64,000 nucleotides of DNA, taken from the IMG/VR virus record IMGVR_UViG_3300037067_006220, positions 1,873 through 65,872 of that record. One strand, written 5' to 3'. The stretch is from a virus (Duplodnaviria; Caudoviricetes). Numbering within the stretch: the first letter of the stretch is position 1; every line of letters starts with the position of its first letter. The position numbers and the translations under genes are program-made. Below, piece after piece: positions 2,062-55,463 of the stretch. The notes under the pieces are model-generated. The model was not told the DNA's origin. It searched no databases and worked only from the letters and a program-made list of their open reading frames with translations.

Positions 2062-3468
2062 ATGAATTGTCCAAACGGTTTTAAGTGCATCGGTGGTGAT
2101 GGGCCAGTAAACGCTGAAATTATGTGCGTCGGTGAGGCACCAGGAAAAGTGGAAAGCTATACTAATATCCCACTGACCGGACCTACAGGCTTAGAGTTTA
2201 ATCAAACGTACTTGCCGTTAGCCGGACTGAAGCGTGAAAATGTGTACGTAACAAATACGGTTAAGCATACCAGCACTATAAATAGGAAGCCGACTGAAGC
2301 TGATATTAAAATGTGCGTGGAGTGTAAGCTTCGAAGTGAACTATTAAAAGTCAAACCCGAAATAGTAATTCTTATGGGTGCAACTGCATGTAGTCTTATA
2401 AGCGACATTGACTTGGATACAAGCCATGGTGTGCCGTTTCAAGGTGAGTTATTTGGCTGGGAATACATAATTGTCCCCATGTGGCATCCGGCGCTCGGGC
2501 TGCATAAAACCAATGCGATGACCGATTTGATTGATGACTGGACTAAATTTGGTGAATGGCTTAAGTGGCGTGAAGCGGACAGCCTAGGTGTGCTTGTGGA
2601 TAACGGACCATATCCAATTGATAATCAGTTCTTTTTTAGGGACTATCAGCTTATTAAGTCAGTACGTGATATAGCCGAATATTTTGACGATGCTGGTGGG
2701 TATCCTAAATTAATTGGTGTCGATACTGAATCCCATGGCTCGGTAGACTTCAGTGTGCAATTCAGTTTGGCTCCTGGATCAGCCCGTATGGTGCTTTGTG
2801 AAGACTTAGGGCTTATGGATGAATGGCAGGCATGGATGAACGAAGCACTCGTGTGTAATAGTGAAATCGTGCTTCATAATGCCCCTGCGGATATACCAGT
2901 ATTGAATCGTTTGGGTTTAAGTGAGTTTCCATACCGTGATACCATGCAGGAAGCGTATCAGCTTTGTAGGTATCCTCAAGCATTAAAAGCACTTAGCTAC
3001 AGGCTTTTAGGCCGTAAGCGCAAATCATGGTCTGAAACAGTAACTCCACCAAGCAAGCTCGTATTGCAGCAATGGTTATTAGAATCAATAACTTACGCTG
3101 AAAATAACCTAACATACTGCGAAAAACGCTGGAGTAAGTCAGGTAAACCTATTAAGCCAAAAGTGCACGTGTCGCCGGTCGAAAAGGCACTGAAATCGTT
3201 GCTAGGACACTCCATAAGCTCCGAAAGCTACGATGTATGGGGTAAGTTAAGGGAGAGGGTGAGTTCGGCTGACTTGGGGCTGCTGGAGGAAGTTTTGGGG
3301 CAAGAAGTGCCAGTGAAAGGTATAAAATATTGCAGTCTTGAAGAACAGTTGTACTATTCTGCCAGTGATGCGGACGATACGCTTGCGTTGGCATTGGAAT
3401 TCGAGCGGATCAGAAGTTTAGGCGTAGACGTGAATGAGGATGACTACGATGCTGTACGGCGGGATTAA
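2062..3468 (+). CDS. Family-4 uracil-DNA glycosylase domain fused to PolA-type 3'-5' exonuclease domain
   Basis: GEAPG and WHPA UDG motifs; ExoI GVDTES, ExoII HNAPAD, ExoIII YSASD. Confidence 0.85.
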   Translation: MNCPNGFKCIGGDGPVNAEIMCVGEAPGKVESYTNIPLTGPTGLEFNQTYLPLAGLKRENVYVTNTVKHTSTINRKPTEADIKMCVECKLRSELLKVKPEIVILMGATACSLISDIDLDTSHGVPFQGELFGWEYIIVPMWHPALGLHKTNAMTDLIDDWTKFGEWLKWREADSLGVLVDNGPYPIDNQFFFRDYQLIKSVRDIAEYFDDAGGYPKLIGVDTESHGSVDFSVQFSLAPGSARMVLCEDLGLMDEWQAWMNEALVCNSEIVLHNAPADIPVLNRLGLSEFPYRDTMQEAYQLCRYPQALKALSYRLLGRKRKSWSETVTPPSKLVLQQWLLESITYAENNLTYCEKRWSKSGKPIKPKVHVSPVEKALKSLLGHSISSESYDVWGKLRERVSSADLGLLEEVLGQEVPVKGIKYCSLEEQLYYSASDADDTLALALEFERIRSLGVDVNEDDYDAVRRD

Positions 3469-4897
3469 GCTTCCGGGTTGTCCCGATTTTGAAAACGTCC
3501 GCAAACTCGATTTATTGCCGATGCCCGCGTTGATGGAGATGATGAAGTATGGGTTCGCTATCGACCGCGACCACATGCACGTGATTGGTGACAAGCTTGC
3601 TGTGGAAATGGCCGAATTAAAACTGGAGATTTGCAGCTACATACCCGAAAGCAAACTTGAAGAATTCATAGCCAAAAGCAATTTAGACGACGACTCGGCT
3701 ATGAATGTAGACTCTAATCAGCAGCTATGTGAGTTGTTATTTAATACGCTCAATATTGGTCACGGGCGGGAGCTTAAACGTACTAAAAGCGGTACGCATA
3801 TAAGTACCGGACGGCGGCAATTGGAAAAGTTGCGTATCGACCATCCCGTGATCGGAAAGGTGTTGAATTATCGTGAGTGCGCGAAACTCAAAAATACATA
3901 TGCCGACAACCTTCCAAGCATGGCTGTCTTACATCCAGCGGGAAGGAATTGTAATATCTGTGGATTGCACCATCATGCCGACACATACCGGATACACACG
4001 CAAATACTCAGCACTCGTACTGCCACCGGGCGCTATGCCAGCAAAGACCCTAATTTACAAAACATCCCAATCCGATCTCTCCTTGGAGCAGCTATACGGG
4101 CAGGATTCGTAGCGACCCCTGGGTGCGTGTTGCTGTCGGTTGATTACAGCCAGATAGAATTACGTATGCTGGCATTTGTAGCATGCGTGAAAAAACTAAT
4201 CGAAGTGTTTTTGCATAATGGCGACCCGCATACCGTCACAGCTATGGAAGCGTTCGGCATAACGGAAGCCCAAGTGAACGCGGACAAGATACGCTATAGG
4301 AACCCTAGTAAGAATGTAAATTTTGCCGTGGTATTCGGTGAGACAGCTTTGGGATTATTTGAGCAGCTAGTAGCTGATAGTTACGGCAAGGCTGGTATTC
4401 CGGTGCCTGAGTGGTTGACGCTTGAATGGTGTGAGGAATTTTTACGCAAATGGTTCGATATATATACTGAAGTGCGCGAATACATGGAGCTTCAAGCATA
4501 TAGAAGCTACCGTTACGGCATGGTGTGGGACATGGTAGGTAGGATACGTTTAGTGCCGGAAGTCAAGAGTGTCCATAAACGTATTGTAGCTGCTGGGTTA
4601 CGCCAAGCTGGTAACATGCCGATACAAGGGCTTGCGAGTGAATTGATTAAGCTGGCGATTGCGGAGATTCAGGAATTTGTTATAACTGAAGTCCGCTCGC
4701 AAGGCATACATTGCATACCGTTGCTCACGGTGCATGATGAAGTCATATACGAAATCGACGAATCATGGGGTGGGGTGATTAAGGAAATAGTGGAAGGCAT
4801 TATGGGTAATGTGTTGATTGACAAAGACACAGGTGAAGATTATTGTACAGTGCCGATTAAGGCAGAAGGTAAAATTATGCAACGGTGGGAAAAGTAA
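3449..4897 (+). CDS. polA: DNA polymerase family A, polymerase domain
   Basis: Motif A DYSQIELR, motif B KNVNFAVVFG, motif C HDE; GAGG SD supports ATG 3449. Confidence 0.95.
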   Translation: MLYGGIKLPGCPDFENVRKLDLLPMPALMEMMKYGFAIDRDHMHVIGDKLAVEMAELKLEICSYIPESKLEEFIAKSNLDDDSAMNVDSNQQLCELLFNTLNIGHGRELKRTKSGTHISTGRRQLEKLRIDHPVIGKVLNYRECAKLKNTYADNLPSMAVLHPAGRNCNICGLHHHADTYRIHTQILSTRTATGRYASKDPNLQNIPIRSLLGAAIRAGFVATPGCVLLSVDYSQIELRMLAFVACVKKLIEVFLHNGDPHTVTAMEAFGITEAQVNADKIRYRNPSKNVNFAVVFGETALGLFEQLVADSYGKAGIPVPEWLTLEWCEEFLRKWFDIYTEVREYMELQAYRSYRYGMVWDMVGRIRLVPEVKSVHKRIVAAGLRQAGNMPIQGLASELIKLAIAEIQEFVITEVRSQGIHCIPLLTVHDEVIYEIDESWGGVIKEIVEGIMGNVLIDKDTGEDYCTVPIKAEGKIMQRWEK

Positions 4898-44784: not shown

Positions 44785-44980
44785 TATAGGATATTGCATT
44801 AGTGTATTTTAGTATTTATTTTTTTTAATGGTCATGGGGGAAATCAAGCTCTTGCATTCAGCTTAAAGCTATTTGCGACAACTCGACTACTAGCTAGGAC
44901 AATAGACTAATACATACACATACAAGCATATAGCATATATAGGATATTGCATAGGCTTATGTAGGTATAGGATATTGCAT
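44785..44980. repeat. three exact copies of TATAGGATATTGCAT (44785, 44938, 44966)
   Basis: Read directly. Confidence 0.85.
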
Positions 44981-45276
44981 ATGTAGTTAGATGCTAATAT
45001 ATAATGATGTAGTTGATAATGTAAGCATTTGCCGACTTATGTAAACTAGATAATATATTTGTGTATGTGTAAGTGTATATATTGCAATGGTTTACAGCAA
45101 TAGTGTAAAATATCCCGACAGTAGGTGTAAAATGTAAAGTGTTGATAATAAAGCAGTTATGGGCTAGGTGTCGGTAGAGTTTACATTATCATAAAGTGTT
45201 CAATATCGGACACTTATATGTAAGTGTATGTAGTAGCTGAGGTTAGATGCTAACAGACTAAAGTATATAAATTGGT

Positions 45277-45796: not shown

Positions 45797-45893
45797 ATGT
45801 AACTTATAAGCATGTAACTTATAACATACAGTGTCACTTATAAGAGTGTAATTTATACCTGACAAATGTAACTTATAAGAGTGTAATTTATAA
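45797..45893. repeat. six copies of RTGTMAYTTATA(A) at 45797, 45812, 45831, 45846, 45866, 45881
   Basis: Read directly; three pairs, 15 nt apart within each pair. Confidence 0.85.
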
Positions 45894-46070
45894 ATGACAT
45901 TGACAAGTATAAATACCCTTGCATATGTGTCCTTTATAAATTACATGGTCTGTTAAAGGTTACTGTACAAAAAATTGACAGTTAACTGTAAACTTTATTG
46001 ACAGTTACTAATTACCATAACTCAGCCAGCTATATGACGATATTATATAATAAAATAGTTGCTTTAGTAG

Positions 46071-46099
46071 TTGACTTATGGTAATTATAAGGCTATATT
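46071..46099 (+). promoter_or_regulatory. sigma70-like promoter TTGACT-N17-TATATT
   Basis: Near-consensus, upstream of early genes. Confidence 0.7.
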
Positions 46100-48570: not shown

Positions 48571-48595
48571 TGTAGTTTAAGCTGATAGCAGAACA

Positions 48596-48649
48596 AAGGC
48601 AACCATATGCTATTAATAGATTACTAGTTAAGGCACTTATGGTTGCCTT
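48596..48649 (+). other. intergenic hairpin AAGGCAACCATA-N30-TATGGTTGCCTT
   Basis: Perfect 12-bp arms read directly. Confidence 0.6.
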
Positions 48650-48703
48650 GATTGTACTATCAGAATATTGAATTAACTGTATTTAACTTTGTAGGATATA
48701 GTT

Positions 48704-49069: not shown

Positions 49070-49309
49070 ATGCCTGAAGACAAAAATGATTTTACTACAG
49101 CTATGCAAGCGCGGGAATATTATAACGTATATCGGCGATATTTCAAGCAACCTGGGCACAAGCGGCTGATATTAGCCCATGTCCATATTGATGAAGCCCA
49201 AGCCCATTGCAATAACCCGGAAACAAGCTCAAGCACCTGTACCACAAGCGGGTGTAAGTTGCGGACTAAACGCATGGGGCCATGGTTCGATAGCTATGAG
49301 AAGGAATAG
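49070..49309 (+). CDS. hypothetical phage protein (EAQAHCNNPETSS motif)
   Basis: SD and ATG 49070. Confidence 0.7.
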   Translation: MPEDKNDFTTAMQAREYYNVYRRYFKQPGHKRLILAHVHIDEAQAHCNNPETSSSTCTTSGCKLRTKRMGPWFDSYEKE

Positions 49310-49385
49310 GCGCTCATAAGTAGCCACAAGCGGAATAAACAAGGTTTACATTAAGGTGATTATACCTTAACAAGGAAGGATAGCC

Positions 49386-50084
49386 ATGTATAAACGAGTA
49401 GATGAGTATAATATTAGTAAGTCGTCTGTATTGGCCTATTTTAAAGGCAATGACAAATCTGGCTACCATGTAAGCCCGCCGTGGTTGAGGCTATTTAAAT
49501 ATCCAGTAATACATGAGGCTGTAATCCGCGATGAAACCATCGTCGAAACTATTAACAGACTTAAAAAAGATATTGATAAAAGCATTTTGAAGTCGGAACC
49601 TAACCGTAAAGGCAAGAAGTATATTGGCGCATATATTGATAATTATGCTTGCGTATCGACGGATGGCTACAGAGCTTTGCTTGTAAGGCACGCGGACAAA
49701 ACTAATATAGTTTGGACTATCTGCGAGCTTCCGGCAAGTAATACGGAATATGTAGCGTTGAATGATCCGACAATTATGGCAGGTATTCAAAGGCTTACTA
49801 TAGTTACAAAAGATAATCCAACACCAGCTATAAAACTTGCCTGGAACCATAAAACACATAAGCTTGTATTATCCACGAGTAGCCATGATTTTGATTTTGA
49901 AGGTACTGAAACATACGACTATACGGGCAACACTTCCGGCGAAGTATGTTTGGCCCCGAAGTATCTGCTTTCGGTGCTGGGCAGTTGGCCGATACGCATG
50001 TACGTAAAAAGCCCGGTTGAGCCGGTAATATTTGGTATGAAGGGTGGGGAATTTTACTACGTGTTAATGCCTATACGGCCATAA
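49386..50084 (+). CDS. partial DNA polymerase III beta-clamp-like protein
   Basis: STDGYRAL (cf. DnaN ATDGHRL), PKYLLSVL, C-terminal YYVLMPIRP. Confidence 0.65.
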   Translation: MYKRVDEYNISKSSVLAYFKGNDKSGYHVSPPWLRLFKYPVIHEAVIRDETIVETINRLKKDIDKSILKSEPNRKGKKYIGAYIDNYACVSTDGYRALLVRHADKTNIVWTICELPASNTEYVALNDPTIMAGIQRLTIVTKDNPTPAIKLAWNHKTHKLVLSTSSHDFDFEGTETYDYTGNTSGEVCLAPKYLLSVLGSWPIRMYVKSPVEPVIFGMKGGEFYYVLMPIRP

Positions 50085-50128
50085 AGGTATAATTTAGGTT
50101 AGCATTTTAAACGAAAGGATAAAGTATT

Positions 50129-50308
50129 ATGTACGGTTATCGTGCTGTAGAGCTTATAGTAGGCAAAGAATACGGTATCGAGTTAGATGCTAATGTTATC
50201 AAACGAGGCTTAGCTAGCTGGCAGGAAGCTGAAGACTTAGCCGACATGCTTAATAAAGCGTATGCGAACGCACTTGAAACTATTAAAAGCAAAATAGCTG
50301 AGCTATAA
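50129..50308 (+). CDS. 59-aa hypothetical protein, missed by ORF track
   Basis: Translated by hand (MYGYRAVEL...KIAEL); GAAAGGA SD. Confidence 0.65.
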   Translation: MYGYRAVELIVGKEYGIELDANVIKRGLASWQEAEDLADMLNKAYANALETIKSKIAEL

Positions 50309-50320
50309 AAAAGTAACATG

Positions 50321-50488
50321 GTATTAATTTCATATACCTGTATCTAAAGCTAGCTTAGAACAATAGTAGTTTGTAGATATATATAAAGTATAACCATATA
50401 TATTGAAGCTGAACAACTTTTTTAATATATATCTATTTATTACTATTGTTCTAAGCTAGCTTTAGATACAGGTATATGAAATTAATAC
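50321..50488. repeat. perfect 48-bp inverted repeat (50321-50368 / 50441-50488) with an inner 11-bp stem
   Basis: Arms verified base by base. Confidence 0.95.
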
Positions 50489-50491
50489 TTC

Positions 50492-50521
50492 TTGACTATT
50501 TTATAGTCCTTATGTTAAGTT
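50492..50521 (+). promoter_or_regulatory. sigma70-like promoter TTGACT-N18-TAAGTT with extended TG
   Basis: Begins 3 nt after the inverted repeat. Confidence 0.55.
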
Positions 50522-50546
50522 ATGTCTTTGGAGGTATTTAAGTATT

Positions 50547-50918
50547 ATGTCACAACTACCGAAAGTCGGCGATAAGTGGGCATGCTTGGAAGTGATCGGC
50601 AGAGATAAGATCGAAAATGAAGAAAATGAATTAGGTTACGGGCGTTTTATTGCCTGCGTTGAATTGCAATGTGAATGCGGTAAGGTATTCCGTGTGCCGG
50701 GCTTTGGATGGAAGGGTAAAAATATTATGCGTGATTGTGGCTGCGGAACATATATAAATACAGCTAGGACAGTCGTATTCAGTGTTAATATCCGTCAAGA
50801 CTATCGGGAAGCGATCGCGCGCATGGCTACAGACAATCAAATTAAAGAAAGCGAAGCCATGCGGATAATTATTGAGGCAGGCTTAGGCACGCTTGGGTAT
50901 AGAAAGGAGCGCGTATGA
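50547..50918 (+). CDS. CxCG Zn-ribbon + ribbon-helix-helix DNA-binding protein (paralog A)
   Basis: QCECGKVF...DCGCG then VVFSVNI..YREAIARMA..SEAMR. Confidence 0.7.
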   Translation: MSQLPKVGDKWACLEVIGRDKIENEENELGYGRFIACVELQCECGKVFRVPGFGWKGKNIMRDCGCGTYINTARTVVFSVNIRQDYREAIARMATDNQIKESEAMRIIIEAGLGTLGYRKERV

Positions 50919-51298
50919 TACCGGAACTTCAGATCGGCATGAGTTGGAAGCATGTAAAGGTTATCAATAGTGGAAAGGAAACCCGCTATTGGGATAATGG
51001 AAATGGTATTGGATGGCATGAACCAGACCAAGAATACTTTGAAGCTCAATGTGATTGTGGCAAGGTATTCCGTATTTGGGCTGATGACTGGAAAGGTAAA
51101 AAGTACATACCCGATTGTGGTTGTGGTATTAGTTTAGCCGATGGTGAACATGTAGTAACAATGATATCAGCCAGCAATGCATGGCGGCAAAGCATGAAAA
51201 AATATGCAGCGGAAAACGGTATCAGCTTGAGCCGTGCGATTGTGGAATTGTCGGCAAACGCATTAAGAAAACATATTGAGGATAAAGCTAATGCTTAA
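50915..51298 (+). CDS. CxCG Zn-ribbon + ribbon-helix-helix DNA-binding protein (paralog B)
   Basis: QCDCGKVF...DCGCG then VVTMIS..YAAENGISLSRAIVEL. Confidence 0.7.
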   Translation: MIPELQIGMSWKHVKVINSGKETRYWDNGNGIGWHEPDQEYFEAQCDCGKVFRIWADDWKGKKYIPDCGCGISLADGEHVVTMISASNAWRQSMKKYAAENGISLSRAIVELSANALRKHIEDKANA

Positions 51299-51599
51299 TA
51301 TACCGGAATTGGTAAATTTGGTATTGGACTTAAAACTCGGTCAAAACACATATATAGTGGATTTTGATATTGTCGATATTGTAGTCAACCCTAATTTAGT
51401 TGTATTTCCCGCAGCTAACGGCTGTATGCATCATTGTTATAGGTATGCTATAACAGGGTTTAGAATAGCCCGCATGATGGTTCATATGTATGACTGTCCT
51501 GCTAAAAAAGCTTCTATGGATAAAATCCGTTATAAATTGCTAACTAGTAAGAAGGTGAAGGCCGAAATTGCTGATATAGTTTTTAAAGGAGCAAAGTGA
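51291..51599 (+). CDS. hypothetical protein
   Basis: Packed ORF. Confidence 0.55.
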   Translation: MLNIPELVNLVLDLKLGQNTYIVDFDIVDIVVNPNLVVFPAANGCMHHCYRYAITGFRIARMMVHMYDCPAKKASMDKIRYKLLTSKKVKAEIADIVFKGAK

Positions 51600-54196
51600 T
51601 GGGGAGAATTAAAATGCATTCGGAAAGTGCTGTAAGTAGTATGAGTGGCAAACAATATAATGTGCTTGGAAGCGATGAGCAAGTGGCTATATGGAAAGCA
51701 CTTGATAATAACCAAGAGCATATTATGGTTAATGCCGTAGCTGGAAGTGGTAAGTGTTTAGGTAAAAGTACACCGGTGTTATTGTATGACGGAAGGATTG
51801 TTCCAGTGGAAACTGTGAAAGCTGGGGACTGGCTTATGGGGCCGGACAGCCAACCACGTATCGTAATAACTACAAATAAAGGTATTGGACGATTGTATCG
51901 GATAACTCCCATCAAAGGCGATCCCTGGGTATGCAACGAAAACCATATTCTAACACTAGTAGGGACTAATCGCTTCAAAGGTCAAACTCGGGATGTTGCT
52001 TTGATGGACTACCGTAGTGAAAGCCGATGTTCACAAACGCAATGGAAACTTTGGCGTACGGGTGTAGAATGGAATGAAAACCGAACTTATGAAGTTGAGC
52101 CATACTTGGTCGGGCTGTGGCTTGGTGATGGCACGAAAACCGACACTGTTATTAGCACAAACGATGAAGAAATAATAAAATATCTTCGTAATTATGCCGA
52201 CGATCATGGCTTGTTGTGCAAAGTCAAAGCTGATCGTACTGTTAATAGTGTGGCTTTACGGATGAAAAACAAAACTGATAAAGGCACACACCAGCGAACG
52301 ATAGACTTCCCGCTTCGGCGCGTACTATTGGCAGGCTGTGTAAAAGATGGAGAAAAACGCATTCCGTTCAAATACCTGATAACGTCTATAGATCAAAGGC
52401 TAAAGTTGCTGGCCGGATTAATTGATTCAGACGGATATTTTGGTTGCGGCTCATACGAAATTGCAACCAAGTATATTGGGTTAGCTACTGACATTTTGTT
52501 CTTGGCTCGAAGTTTGGGCTTTGCTGCTTATATCAGTTTTAAAACCGTGCAATTGGACGAAGAACGCACAGTTGGGTATTATCGGATATCAATTTCTGGC
52601 GAACAGCTTGAATTAATTCCTGTTTTACTTCGTCGAAAAAAAGCTCCGTTACGAAAACAAATAAAGCGCACCAATATTACAGGTTTCACAATCGAAGGAA
52701 TTGGAGTGGGCGAGTATTATGGTTTTACGTTGACTGGTGATGGTAGATTCTTGCTTGGTGACTTTACCGTAACACACAATACTTGGACCATTGTAGAGTG
52801 GGCTAAGGCACAAACCAGCGGAAGGATCGCTTTGGTAGCATTTAATAAGCATATTGCTGATGAACTGAAGCTTAGATTAGGCAATAATAAGTTCGTCGAA
52901 CCTATGACGTATCACAGCTTGGGTTTTCGGCAAGTTAAAGCGGCATTCGGCGGCAAAGTGCAAGTCGATAACTACAAAGTCGATGGGATATTGGATAATA
53001 TTGCTTTACCAGGCTTTAGCGAAAATGACGAATGGAAAAGCAAACAAGTCAAATGGAAAATTAAAAAGCTTGTAAGTTTGGCTAAGCAGTACGCGGTACG
53101 TGACCGGGTGGAGCTTGAGCGGTTAGTGGATCACCATGACGTTGAGCTTAACGGCAATGAAGAAGTAGTGTATGAATACGTACCAAAAGTATTGGATGCG
53201 TGTAAAACTAATAAAAGTGTTGTGGACTTTGACGATATGGTTTGGCTGCCGAGTGAGCTTGGCTTGAGCAGCAAGCAATACGATGTAATGTGCGTGGATG
53301 AATTGCAGGATACGAATATTGTTCAGCAATATTTAGCGTTAAATACCGCTCATAGGATTGTTGGTATAGGCGACGAAAAACAGTCGATCTATGGATTTCG
53401 TGGAGCCGATGTAAACGGTATGGAGCGAATTAAAAATGAATTGAGCAAAACCTCAGCTGGTTGCATGAGTTTGCCACTGAATATTACCCGCCGATGCCCA
53501 AAAAGCCACGTAGAGCTTGCTAAACGTATTGTGCCGCAAATTACAGCCCTAGATACGGCGGACGTAGGGCTTGTGAGTACGCTTAAAGCTGAAGTTGCGG
53601 TCAATAGTATGCGTCCAGGGGATTTAGTGGTATGTAGAGTGAATGCGGAATTGCTTGGTGTAGCATATAAGTTACTTAAACGTGGCGTCAAAGCGGTAGT
53701 TAGGGGTAGGGATTTGGGTGCGGGTTTGGAAAAGTTAATTGACAAATGCATAAAGAAAGGTGCCAATGAAGATGTGCGTGATTTGCTTGATATTGCTGGT
53801 CAAATTACTAATCAAGAAACTGATAAGTATTTAGCTATACCGCATGGCCGGGGTGAAATGCGTGCGGCTAATGCACAAGACAGATACGGGTGTTTGTGTG
53901 AGCTTGCGGTGGATTGTAAAACAGTTAGCGAATTGCGGGGTGTAATTACACGGCTATTTGCGGACTTTGATGATAGTGGAAAACCGAATAATGCGGTAGT
54001 ATTGGGAACTATACATAGGACGAAAGGTTTAGAAGCTAACCGGGTGTTTGTGCTACGGGGCGATCTTATACCGCACCCGATGGCAAAGCAAAATTGGGAA
54101 TGTGTCCAGGAAATGAACGCTGCATATATAGCCGTCACGCGCTCGAAGTATGAGCTTATTTGGGTAGGGCAACCAAGCAGTTTATTTGTGGATTAA
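51596..54196 (+). CDS. SF1 (UvrD/Rep-like) helicase with intein
   Basis: AVAGSGK|T, DELQD, GDEKQSIYGFRG, RCP, TIHRTKGLE, YIAVTR. Confidence 0.92.
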   Translation: MMGRIKMHSESAVSSMSGKQYNVLGSDEQVAIWKALDNNQEHIMVNAVAGSGKCLGKSTPVLLYDGRIVPVETVKAGDWLMGPDSQPRIVITTNKGIGRLYRITPIKGDPWVCNENHILTLVGTNRFKGQTRDVALMDYRSESRCSQTQWKLWRTGVEWNENRTYEVEPYLVGLWLGDGTKTDTVISTNDEEIIKYLRNYADDHGLLCKVKADRTVNSVALRMKNKTDKGTHQRTIDFPLRRVLLAGCVKDGEKRIPFKYLITSIDQRLKLLAGLIDSDGYFGCGSYEIATKYIGLATDILFLARSLGFAAYISFKTVQLDEERTVGYYRISISGEQLELIPVLLRRKKAPLRKQIKRTNITGFTIEGIGVGEYYGFTLTGDGRFLLGDFTVTHNTWTIVEWAKAQTSGRIALVAFNKHIADELKLRLGNNKFVEPMTYHSLGFRQVKAAFGGKVQVDNYKVDGILDNIALPGFSENDEWKSKQVKWKIKKLVSLAKQYAVRDRVELERLVDHHDVELNGNEEVVYEYVPKVLDACKTNKSVVDFDDMVWLPSELGLSSKQYDVMCVDELQDTNIVQQYLALNTAHRIVGIGDEKQSIYGFRGADVNGMERIKNELSKTSAGCMSLPLNITRRCPKSHVELAKRIVPQITALDTADVGLVSTLKAEVAVNSMRPGDLVVCRVNAELLGVAYKLLKRGVKAVVRGRDLGAGLEKLIDKCIKKGANEDVRDLLDIAGQITNQETDKYLAIPHGRGEMRAANAQDRYGCLCELAVDCKTVSELRGVITRLFADFDDSGKPNNAVVLGTIHRTKGLEANRVFVLRGDLIPHPMAKQNWECVQEMNAAYIAVTRSKYELIWVGQPSSLFVD
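51755..52780 (+). mobile_element. 342-aa intein with LAGLIDADG homing endonuclease in the Walker A motif
   Basis: Starts CLGKST, ends VTHN before Thr+1; LAGLIDSDG motif. Confidence 0.93.
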
Positions 54197-55305: not shown

Positions 55306-55383
55306 AGCGGAGTGGCCTAGTATGGTTAAGGCACTTGTTTTGGGAACAAGGGATCGGGGGTTCAAATCCTCTCTCCGCTACCA
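55306..55383 (+). tRNA. tRNA-Pro(UGG)
   Basis: AGCGGAG/CTCCGCT acceptor, GCCT/AGGC D stem, CTTGT-TTTGGGA-ACAAG, TTCAAAT loop, encoded CCA. Confidence 0.92.
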
Positions 55384-55387
55384 GTTT

Positions 55388-55463
55388 GTACCCGTAGCTC
55401 AAAGGATAGAGCAGAAGTTCTCTAAACTTATGGCTGCAGGTTCGAGTCCTGCCGGGTACTCCA
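55388..55463 (+). tRNA. tRNA-Arg(UCU) with atypical anticodon loop
   Basis: GTACCCG/CGGGTAC acceptor, GCTC/GAGC D stem with A20, loop TCTCTAA, TTCGAGT, CCA. Confidence 0.85.

Follow-up and report, generated by a model that had tools for sequence, protein, structure and literature searches.

What maintains a long, perfect inverted repeat in a phage genome, directly in front of a helicase operon? The question is raised by a 168-bp element in the DNA analysed here (the window, 64,000 nucleotides long and corresponding to bases 1873-65872 of a 65,872-bp IMG/VR virus record rated complete by CheckV). A sequence-only reading had described the element as a perfect inverted repeat gating a promoter and had named four options for its role: an origin or cruciform, an invertible 72-bp switch, a long dsRNA hairpin, or an operator array for two ribbon-helix-helix (RHH) proteins encoded just downstream.

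The gene layout of the record is of the tailed-phage type. A minus-strand block of ~39 kb contains weak portal, capsid and terminase matches, and a plus-strand block from ~46 kb onwards carries the replication genes (a clamp-like fragment, a UvrD-like helicase with an intein, a ParB-like protein, a DEAD-box helicase and a split family-A polymerase). The 65.9-kb phage is novel. Neither blastn of 49300-51400 nor tblastn of P0003, a protein of a close relative, gave a match in 50,697 GenBank phage records, and because the region is without a GenBank phage match at DNA or protein level, the lineage is regarded as uncultured. DNA of the phage was present in a landfill metagenome (run X1, the likely source) and in an independent groundwater study (run X2); runs X3 and X4 contained next to nothing of the stretch.

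Several other features of the genome were recorded. The family-A DNA polymerase is split into two overlapping ORFs (2062-3468 and 3434-4897; 468 and 487 aa), both matching consecutive parts of one PHROG polymerase profile; a frameshift or a sequencing error may lie behind this, or the split may be a programmed one. Genes for tRNA-Pro(TGG) and tRNA-Arg(TCT) are arranged in tandem at 55306-55463, where 1.1 kb of the replication block is non-coding. TATAGGATATTGCAT occurs three times (44785-44985) in the long run of non-coding DNA that separates the late block from the early one, and the three copies are candidate phage-specific promoters or operator sites. A 232-aa protein (49386-50084) matches only the last third of the sliding-clamp (processivity factor) PHROG profile and may be a truncated or highly diverged clamp.

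By direct reading, the two 48-bp arms of the element are complementary at 48/48 positions (Table 1). The core opens with a 5x5 internal loop (50369-50373 / 50436-50440), in which 3/5 positions are still pairable (2 G:T, 1 T:A), and continues with an inner stem of 11 bp (50374-50384 / 50425-50435) and an AT-rich 40-nt loop (50385-50424). A repeat search extended the symmetry beyond the perfect arms, to 50303-50387 / 50422-50506 (85 nt, 87%, 34 nt between). The element mostly fills a 238-nt intergenic gap between the stop of the upstream ORF at 50308 and the start of the next gene at 50547, and reading of its flanks revealed no direct duplication that would mark a target site. The palindrome AAGCTAGCTT was found in both arms, and TTGACT (50492-50497) follows the end of the right arm after 3 nt. 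In all these respects (identical arms, internal loop, inner stem and AT-rich loop, a palindrome in each arm, intergenic position without target-site duplication, and distance to the -35 box) the description given by the sequence-only reading was confirmed.

Table 1. Positions of the inverted repeat, the candidate control sites and the neighbouring genes in the window.
Feature	Position	Strand	Remarks
Upstream 59-aa ORF	50129..50308	+	not conserved in relatives
Third AGCTAGCT	50212..50219	.	inside upstream 59-aa ORF, 136 bp from left-arm box
Outer imperfect extension of left arm	50303..50320	.	pairs with 50489-50506; includes stop codon of upstream ORF
Left arm of perfect 48-bp inverted repeat	50321..50368	.	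exact complement of 50441-50488
Sub-palindrome AAGCTAGCTT, left arm	50347..50356	.	candidate RHH recognition box
72-bp core (5x5 internal loop, inner stem, 40-nt loop)	50369..50440	.	18% GC
Right arm of perfect 48-bp inverted repeat	50441..50488	.	48/48 reverse complement of left arm
Sub-palindrome AAGCTAGCTT, right arm	50453..50462	.	candidate RHH recognition box; centre 106 bp from left copy
Outer imperfect extension of right arm	50489..50506	.	contains -35-like TTGACT
Candidate promoter TTGACT-18-TGtTAAGTT for Zn-RHH genes	50492..50521	+	weak by consensus
15-bp palindrome (6-3-6)	50494..50508	.	overlaps -35 and spacer of candidate promoter
Zn-RHH paralogue A, 123 aa	50547..50918	+	N-terminal CxC...CxC zinc beta-domain, C-terminal ribbon-helix-helix
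Zn-RHH paralogue B, 127 aa	50915..51298	+	more typical family member; overlaps A by ATGA
107-aa ORF between regulators and helicase	51276..51599	+	no family match
UvrD-like helicase with intein (Hint + LAGLIDADG)	51596..54196	+	conserved downstream partner of Zn-RHH gene

In size it exceeds every other inverted repeat of the window by a wide margin, the next-largest having arms of 28 nt. Folded as single-stranded DNA, the element reached -59.8 kcal/mol vs -14.7 +/- 2.8 for shuffled sequences (z = -16.2), and 0/200 shuffles were as good. A 32-mer of the arm matched at the two arm sites only, one per strand (0 expected from shuffles), and a blastn-short search of the genome with the arm turned up no additional partial copy, so that the element is single copy. 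The exact arm pattern had no match when searched in IMG/VR. GC content of the stem is 23%, and comparison of all 72-bp windows identified the core as the most AT-rich 72 bp of the 64 kb. A second intergenic inverted repeat is located at 48582-48663, just after a 321-aa gene (26-nt arms, 85%, 30 nt between); its mismatches are without strand bias.

Perfect palindromes attract general suspicion as fold-back chimeras formed during assembly or amplification, and nothing beyond this suspicion pointed to such an artefact here. Logan contigs of X1 and X2 show 0 differences across the two flanks, the arm and the core, and this letter-for-letter presence in an independent groundwater metagenome argues against an assembly artefact. 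Both flanks are unique and run on into normal genes; since the unique sequence differs between the two sides and the element occurs in two independent studies, a fold-back chimera was set aside. In X1 the 48-nt arm unitig had a depth of 49 vs 26-29 in the flanks (~2x), as expected because the arm sequence is present twice. Analogous repeats were moreover found in two other assemblies (see below). The chance of an artefact is therefore practically negligible. The Logan contigs were built with k = 31, which is shorter than the 48-bp arm, and the orientation of the core is thus invisible in them. Record 10 of run X2, a 1,113-nt contig at ~6x depth, aligned in pieces to 50307-51596 (end of the 59-aa ORF, zinc region of paralogue B, start of the helicase) with ~19% differences, and evidently represents a related phage in the same groundwater sample.

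The genes downstream of the repeat are arranged in the order A, B, 107-aa ORF and UvrD-like helicase, and overlap or abut; all genes flanking the repeat are on the + strand. A and B are paralogues with 32% identity and have in common the pattern W...CxCG...GK..DCGCG and a C-terminal strand-helix-helix. The pair is kept in the two closest relatives (P0002 and P0154 on a 1,781-bp contig, P0003 and P0156 on a 66,958-bp contig). A profile search of 1.8 billion representatives yielded 231 related clusters at 50% identity, nearly all of 110-180 aa, and the family members whose sources were looked up were all unnamed or 'hypothetical'. Pfam and PHROGs gave nothing significant for A and B of the window; across 66 family members, zinc ribbons and RHH models recurred as weak matches.

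In the AF2 monomer model (pLDDT 91.9), residues 73-123 superposed best on SvtR (VIA-align; Z 6.9, rmsd 1.1 A over 46 residues), and besides SvtR >40 RHH chains covered the same residues. Further superpositions were obtained with PutA-RHH, ArtA, TraM, NikR, omega, Arc, CopA and ORF56, Foldseek gave local probabilities of 0.97-0.99 for ORF56 and SvtR, and a search of the family profile against the PDB returned a run of RHH chains (E = 0.0014 to 1). Model, superpositions and PDB profile bear out the earlier assignment of two RHH proteins to this position: as modelled, with a strand-helix-helix fold of ~45 residues, A and B belong to the ribbon-helix-helix (RHH / MetJ-Arc-CopG) superfamily. Residues 4-69 (window 50547-50750) form a small zinc-bearing beta-domain; among solved folds, the RNA-polymerase-interacting domain of CarD and further barrels of the Tudor/KOW-like type come nearest to it (Z ~5). 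The superposition on the CarD domain is weak (Z 5.0, rmsd 2.3-2.7 over 51-53 residues) and hints that the zinc domain may contact RNA polymerase directly. The ESM Atlas returned unnamed clusters and sub-0.5 TM matches only, and structure neighbours of the zinc domain there include HNH-endonuclease-associated modules (TM below 0.5). The CarD-like and HNH-associated resemblances are leads only.

For comparison, three other loci encoding a family member were examined, of which L003 came from metagenome contigs and L004 and the record of L005 from viral contigs. The family search of genome contigs was without any related locus, and searches of viral contigs with P0081 and P0157 singly brought up L004 once more or no locus at all. 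L003, a groundwater contig of 1.9 kb, encodes a Zn-RHH protein with 28% identity, followed by a small ORF and the start of the same UvrD-like helicase. Directly upstream of the Zn-RHH gene it carries arms of 62 nt (699-760 / 856-917; 79% complementary, 95 nt between; fold z = -9.6), each with an 8-2-8 palindrome, and the repeat extends up to the ribosome-binding (Shine-Dalgarno) site. L005 belongs to an IMG/VR phage of 60.9 kb with a helicase of 50% identity; its single Zn-RHH gene encodes a protein 39-42% identical to paralogue B and is preceded at a distance of ~100 nt by a repeat with 24-nt arms (3706-3729 / 3797-3820; 96%) and an inner dyad centred on an (AT)n run (fold z = -7.1). As in the window, the RHH gene in L003 and L005 is promoter-proximal and co-directional with the replication gene. 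The intein insert of the window's helicase (Hint and LAGLIDADG homing-endonuclease domains at ~residues 54-395, between the N-terminal P-loop region and the helicase remainder) is absent from the helicases of L003, L005 and L006. In L004, a high-GC phage, the Zn-RHH gene precedes a 435-aa P-loop-like protein, not the UvrD-like helicase, and no inverted repeat was found upstream of it. Here, two direct copies of TATAAATT(T)GAAAAT (14-15 nt, at 2765-2815) are located just before the start codon, within the most AT-rich 60 bp of the locus.

The presence of an inverted repeat in relatives, on which the sequence-only reading had made its case depend, was thus found in L003 and L005. Large inverted repeats precede the Zn-RHH gene in 3/4 loci, vs 0/7 helicase-related loci without this gene, none of which has a comparable repeat upstream (Fisher p ~0.02). 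The position of the repeat is conserved across divergent phages, and the element is real and highly non-random. An AT-rich island precedes the Zn-RHH gene in every locus: it is the lowest-GC 72 bp in the window and ranks among the lowest-GC 60-mers as first in L003, second in L005 and first in L004. The repeats of the window, L003 and L005 have no k-mer of 8 or more in common, and the genes upstream of them are unrelated among the three loci; from this it follows that the repeat travels with the Zn-RHH gene. By sequence comparison, what is conserved is the architecture and its attachment to that gene.

These observations bear on two mechanisms in which the repeat would have nothing to do with the regulators. 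The element might be a selfish or neutral palindromic insertion (MITE-like) or a plain terminator of the upstream genes, as could be suggested by a long hairpin that sits between genes and closely follows a stop codon. Against an insertion, it is a single copy with no related sequence elsewhere in the genome and no target-site duplication. A terminator would be expected to show a G+C-rich stem followed by a T-run, which is absent; the terminator scan was silent, the stem is AT-rich, and no T-run follows the repeat in L003 or L005. Since the repeat has moreover kept its place beside the Zn-RHH gene while the upstream genes differ, we consider either account very improbable. Perfect inverted arms around an asymmetrical core are also what would be expected of an invertible switch, the 72-bp segment being flipped by recombination between the 48-bp arms. 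PF00239 and PF00589 (serine and tyrosine recombinase) were without match in the 65.9-kb genome, with control genomes positive. DNA is stiff, and 72 bp is far below the length that lets two flanking sites synapse; the arms of L003, furthermore, are only 79% alike. On account of the missing recombinase and the very short segment, this option of the sequence-only reading was abandoned as exceedingly improbable. Two specialised sites were also considered and rejected. For a pac/cos site, the terminase genes are ~12 kb away on the other strand, and for a protelomerase target, a tyrosine-recombinase-like gene is missing and the palindrome does not run unbroken through the centre; packaging and telomere resolution are both unlikely roles.

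The arms and their surroundings contain abundant dyads. In the 64-kb window, AGCTAGCT has 3 matches (50212, 50348 and 50454; 0.91 expected), all within 250 bp, of which two are the arm boxes and the first is a possible auxiliary site. The spacings of 136 and 106 bp are near whole numbers of helical turns, the 106 bp between the arm boxes amounting to ~10 turns. One dyad overlaps the -35-like TTGACT of a candidate promoter that is weak by consensus and whose place differs between loci. Its candidate -10 (TGtTAAGTT, at 18-nt spacing) is the best found, under a consensus that may not be that of the host, and a stricter consensus promoter scan did not call the candidate promoter. The window has its best promoter candidate outside the repeat; in L003 and L005 the best one falls within the AT-rich centre. 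Of the earlier proposal that the repeat gates a promoter, the TTGACT is real, the best -10 is weak and the consensus scan silent, and gating is plausible. The sub-palindromes in the arms of the window and L003, together with the palindrome overlapping the -35, are operator-like candidates and speak for an operator.

By analogy with the control of repB by CopG, we tentatively read the repeat as a symmetrical operator/promoter platform that is bound by the Zn-RHH proteins and autoregulates the Zn-RHH-helicase operon. This is our preferred reading, to which we give somewhat less than an even chance; it takes up one of the four options of the sequence-only reading, favoured by the RHH fold and by the recurrence of the repeat with the gene, and we infer the binding itself as well as the boxes, the promoter and the sign of the regulation. 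As dimers and higher oligomers, RHH proteins attach to short dyads or repeats, and autoregulation is very common among them. In the proposed mechanism, the platform would flank the most easily melted stretch of the genome and adjoin or enclose the promoter of the operon formed by Zn-RHH gene, small ORF and helicase. RHH dimers (A, B or both) would sit on the AAGCTAGCTT boxes of each arm and the zinc domains would contact neighbouring DNA. With both arms occupied, and the AT-rich core possibly looped or bridged, the promoter would be shut, and the operon would autoregulate as CopG does for copG-repB.

Several points count against this operator reading. The 48-bp perfect arms are far longer than any RHH operator known to us needs. 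Because no motif is common to the three repeats, co-evolution of protein and DNA must be assumed. The place of the promoter is not conserved, and in L004 nothing more than short direct repeats accompanies the gene. An origin would suit the AT-rich core and the adjacent helicase equally well, and wobble pairs favour a hairpin of the sense strand. As the arm identity exceeds what a protein needs, it was attributed to template-switch (quasipalindrome) correction between the arms, an established property of quasipalindromes; perfect identity would be best explained in this way and not by base-by-base selection, and the less perfect arms of L003 are consistent with this view.

The repeat may alternatively be a replication origin or DNA-unwinding element, in which the AT-rich core melts, the arms hold an origin-binding protein and the helicase is loaded. 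The bound protein would perhaps be Zn-RHH, and negative supercoiling may drive the arms into a cruciform, by analogy with palindromic herpesvirus origins. With identical arms around the 72 bp of highest AT content in the 64-kb window, the element has the form of an origin (the form only), and the centres of the L003 and L005 repeats are the first and second most AT-rich 60-mers of their loci. The element is located in the replication module, directly upstream of the helicase operon with which it is conserved, its fold is very stable, and the replication module has no recognisable initiator gene elsewhere. AT-rich islands are equally typical of promoters, however, and RHH proteins are to our knowledge mainly repressors and centromere binders and not known as initiators. 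There is also a competing candidate at 45797-46090, which is iteron-like, dyad-rich and AT-rich and sits where the two transcription blocks diverge and the cumulative GC skew reaches its minimum. This region contains repeated 12-13-mers of the TGTAA(C/T)TTATAA type, at 45959-46008 a dyad around GTTAAC, and at 46009-46087 another inverted pair of 16 nt; it is a candidate alternative origin or early control region. On balance, we regard an origin at the repeat as a serious contender, if a rather unlikely one.

A related proposal, which we hold to be distinctly unlikely, combines elements of both readings in a structure-dependent replication control point, at which the AT-rich stretch would open under negative supercoiling and the arms would extrude as a cruciform. 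Extrusion would take the adjoining promoter out of its duplex form, and the extruded arms would be a substrate for the Zn-RHH protein and for helicase assembly. The result would be a palindromic origin/promoter switch resembling herpesvirus oriL, but in a bacteriophage and with a new Zn-ribbon-RHH family, the N-terminal domain of which is similar to the CarD domain (Z 5.0).

The repeat could also act as RNA. Read-through from upstream on the + strand would produce a hairpin of ~200 nt with a 48-bp perfect duplex, which would serve, where the early genes give way to the replication operon, as a 5'-UTR element or as a site of RNase III processing or of stability; we consider this reading unlikely. 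The sense fold is better than the antisense fold in 3/3 loci (-102.9 vs -96.0, -117.2 vs -96.3 and -50.7 vs -41.6 kcal/mol). Transition mismatches between the arms are mostly G:T on the + strand (G:T vs A:C, 13 vs 4 in L003 and 5 vs 3 in L005), the strand on which all flanking genes lie. In L003 the repeat ends at the Shine-Dalgarno site and must be transcribed unless the promoter is inside the repeat. The asymmetry is weak, however, given a G+T-rich + strand (estimated p ~0.09 for L003), and the window's own counts (5 vs 6) lack the bias, so that of the long dsRNA hairpin proposed earlier the wobble-pair argument stands only in weak form. From the candidate promoters that fall within the AT-rich centres in L003 and L005, one arm only would be transcribed. 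A search of Rfam found no family at the gathering threshold; the matches were to plant and animal miRNA-precursor models only (20-52 bits vs thresholds of 70-107), as generic long hairpins give. The link with the Zn-RHH gene, finally, is left unexplained by an RNA function.

RHH autoregulators at dyad operators are textbook knowledge. What is new at this locus is an uncharacterised protein family in which a zinc beta-domain is fused to RHH and which has not been described before. Its apparent tie to the helicase operon of environmental phages, and its seemingly consistent partnership with a very long inverted repeat around an extreme AT-rich centre, are likewise not described. If the proteins bind the arms, the locus would offer a defined cis/trans pair with which to ask how a phage genome keeps a long near-perfect palindrome and what use it makes of it. 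It would also give access to the control of replication in a phage lineage without a cultured member. Should the repeat prove to be an origin, it would be a rare example of the palindromic kind in tailed phages.

Among known systems, several resemble the locus in part. The RHH proteins MetJ, Arc and Mnt act on short palindromic boxes. The phage element is similar to MetJ met-boxes and Arc/Mnt operators in its 8-10-bp palindromic box (AGCTAGCT) repeated in helical phase; met-boxes are tandem and adjacent, whereas in the phage the spacings are 106 and 136 bp and the boxes form part of long identical arms. In the gal repressosome, the operators OE and OI, bound by a protein of the LacI/GalR family, are ~114 bp apart and enclose the promoters. 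Two identical sites ~10 turns apart flank an AT-rich bendable segment in both cases, in the phage one that may include the promoter or lie next to it, an analogy of mechanism only; the gal operators have no long inverted repeat and a different protein family, and looping in the phage is predicted.

Herpes simplex oriL and oriS consist of a long palindrome with an AT-rich centre and inverted binding sites and have an associated helicase, and cruciform extrusion has been proposed for palindromic herpesvirus origins. They belong to a eukaryotic virus with an unrelated origin-binding protein, and, unlike them, the putative phage origin has a core whose central 40 nt are not palindromic. RNase III sites of T7 are ~50-60 nt long with internal loops. 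Hairpins of this kind are, like the phage repeat, intergenic and placed between co-directional gene blocks; the phage stem is ~3x as long as a T7 site and perfectly paired, with transcription across it putative.

The parallel behind the preferred reading is the pMV158 system, where copG is the first gene of the copG-repB operon and CopG represses the only promoter of that operon (PMC5737340). CopG acts on a short pseudo-symmetric operator, and the phage element is a 168-bp repeat with 48-bp arms; the phage proteins differ from CopG by an extra N-terminal zinc beta-domain and by forming a paralogue pair, and the downstream gene is a UvrD-like helicase in the phage vs a Rep initiator in the CopG system. 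ORF56 and CopG-family chains are among the structural and sequence matches of the phage proteins. As in CopG / Pcr / copG-repB of pMV158, and also in ORF56-ORF904 of pRN1, a small RHH gene comes first and a replication gene after, and the phage locus would have in common with the CopG system a dyad-symmetrical target at the operon's own, in the phage putative, promoter and an autoregulatory circuit.
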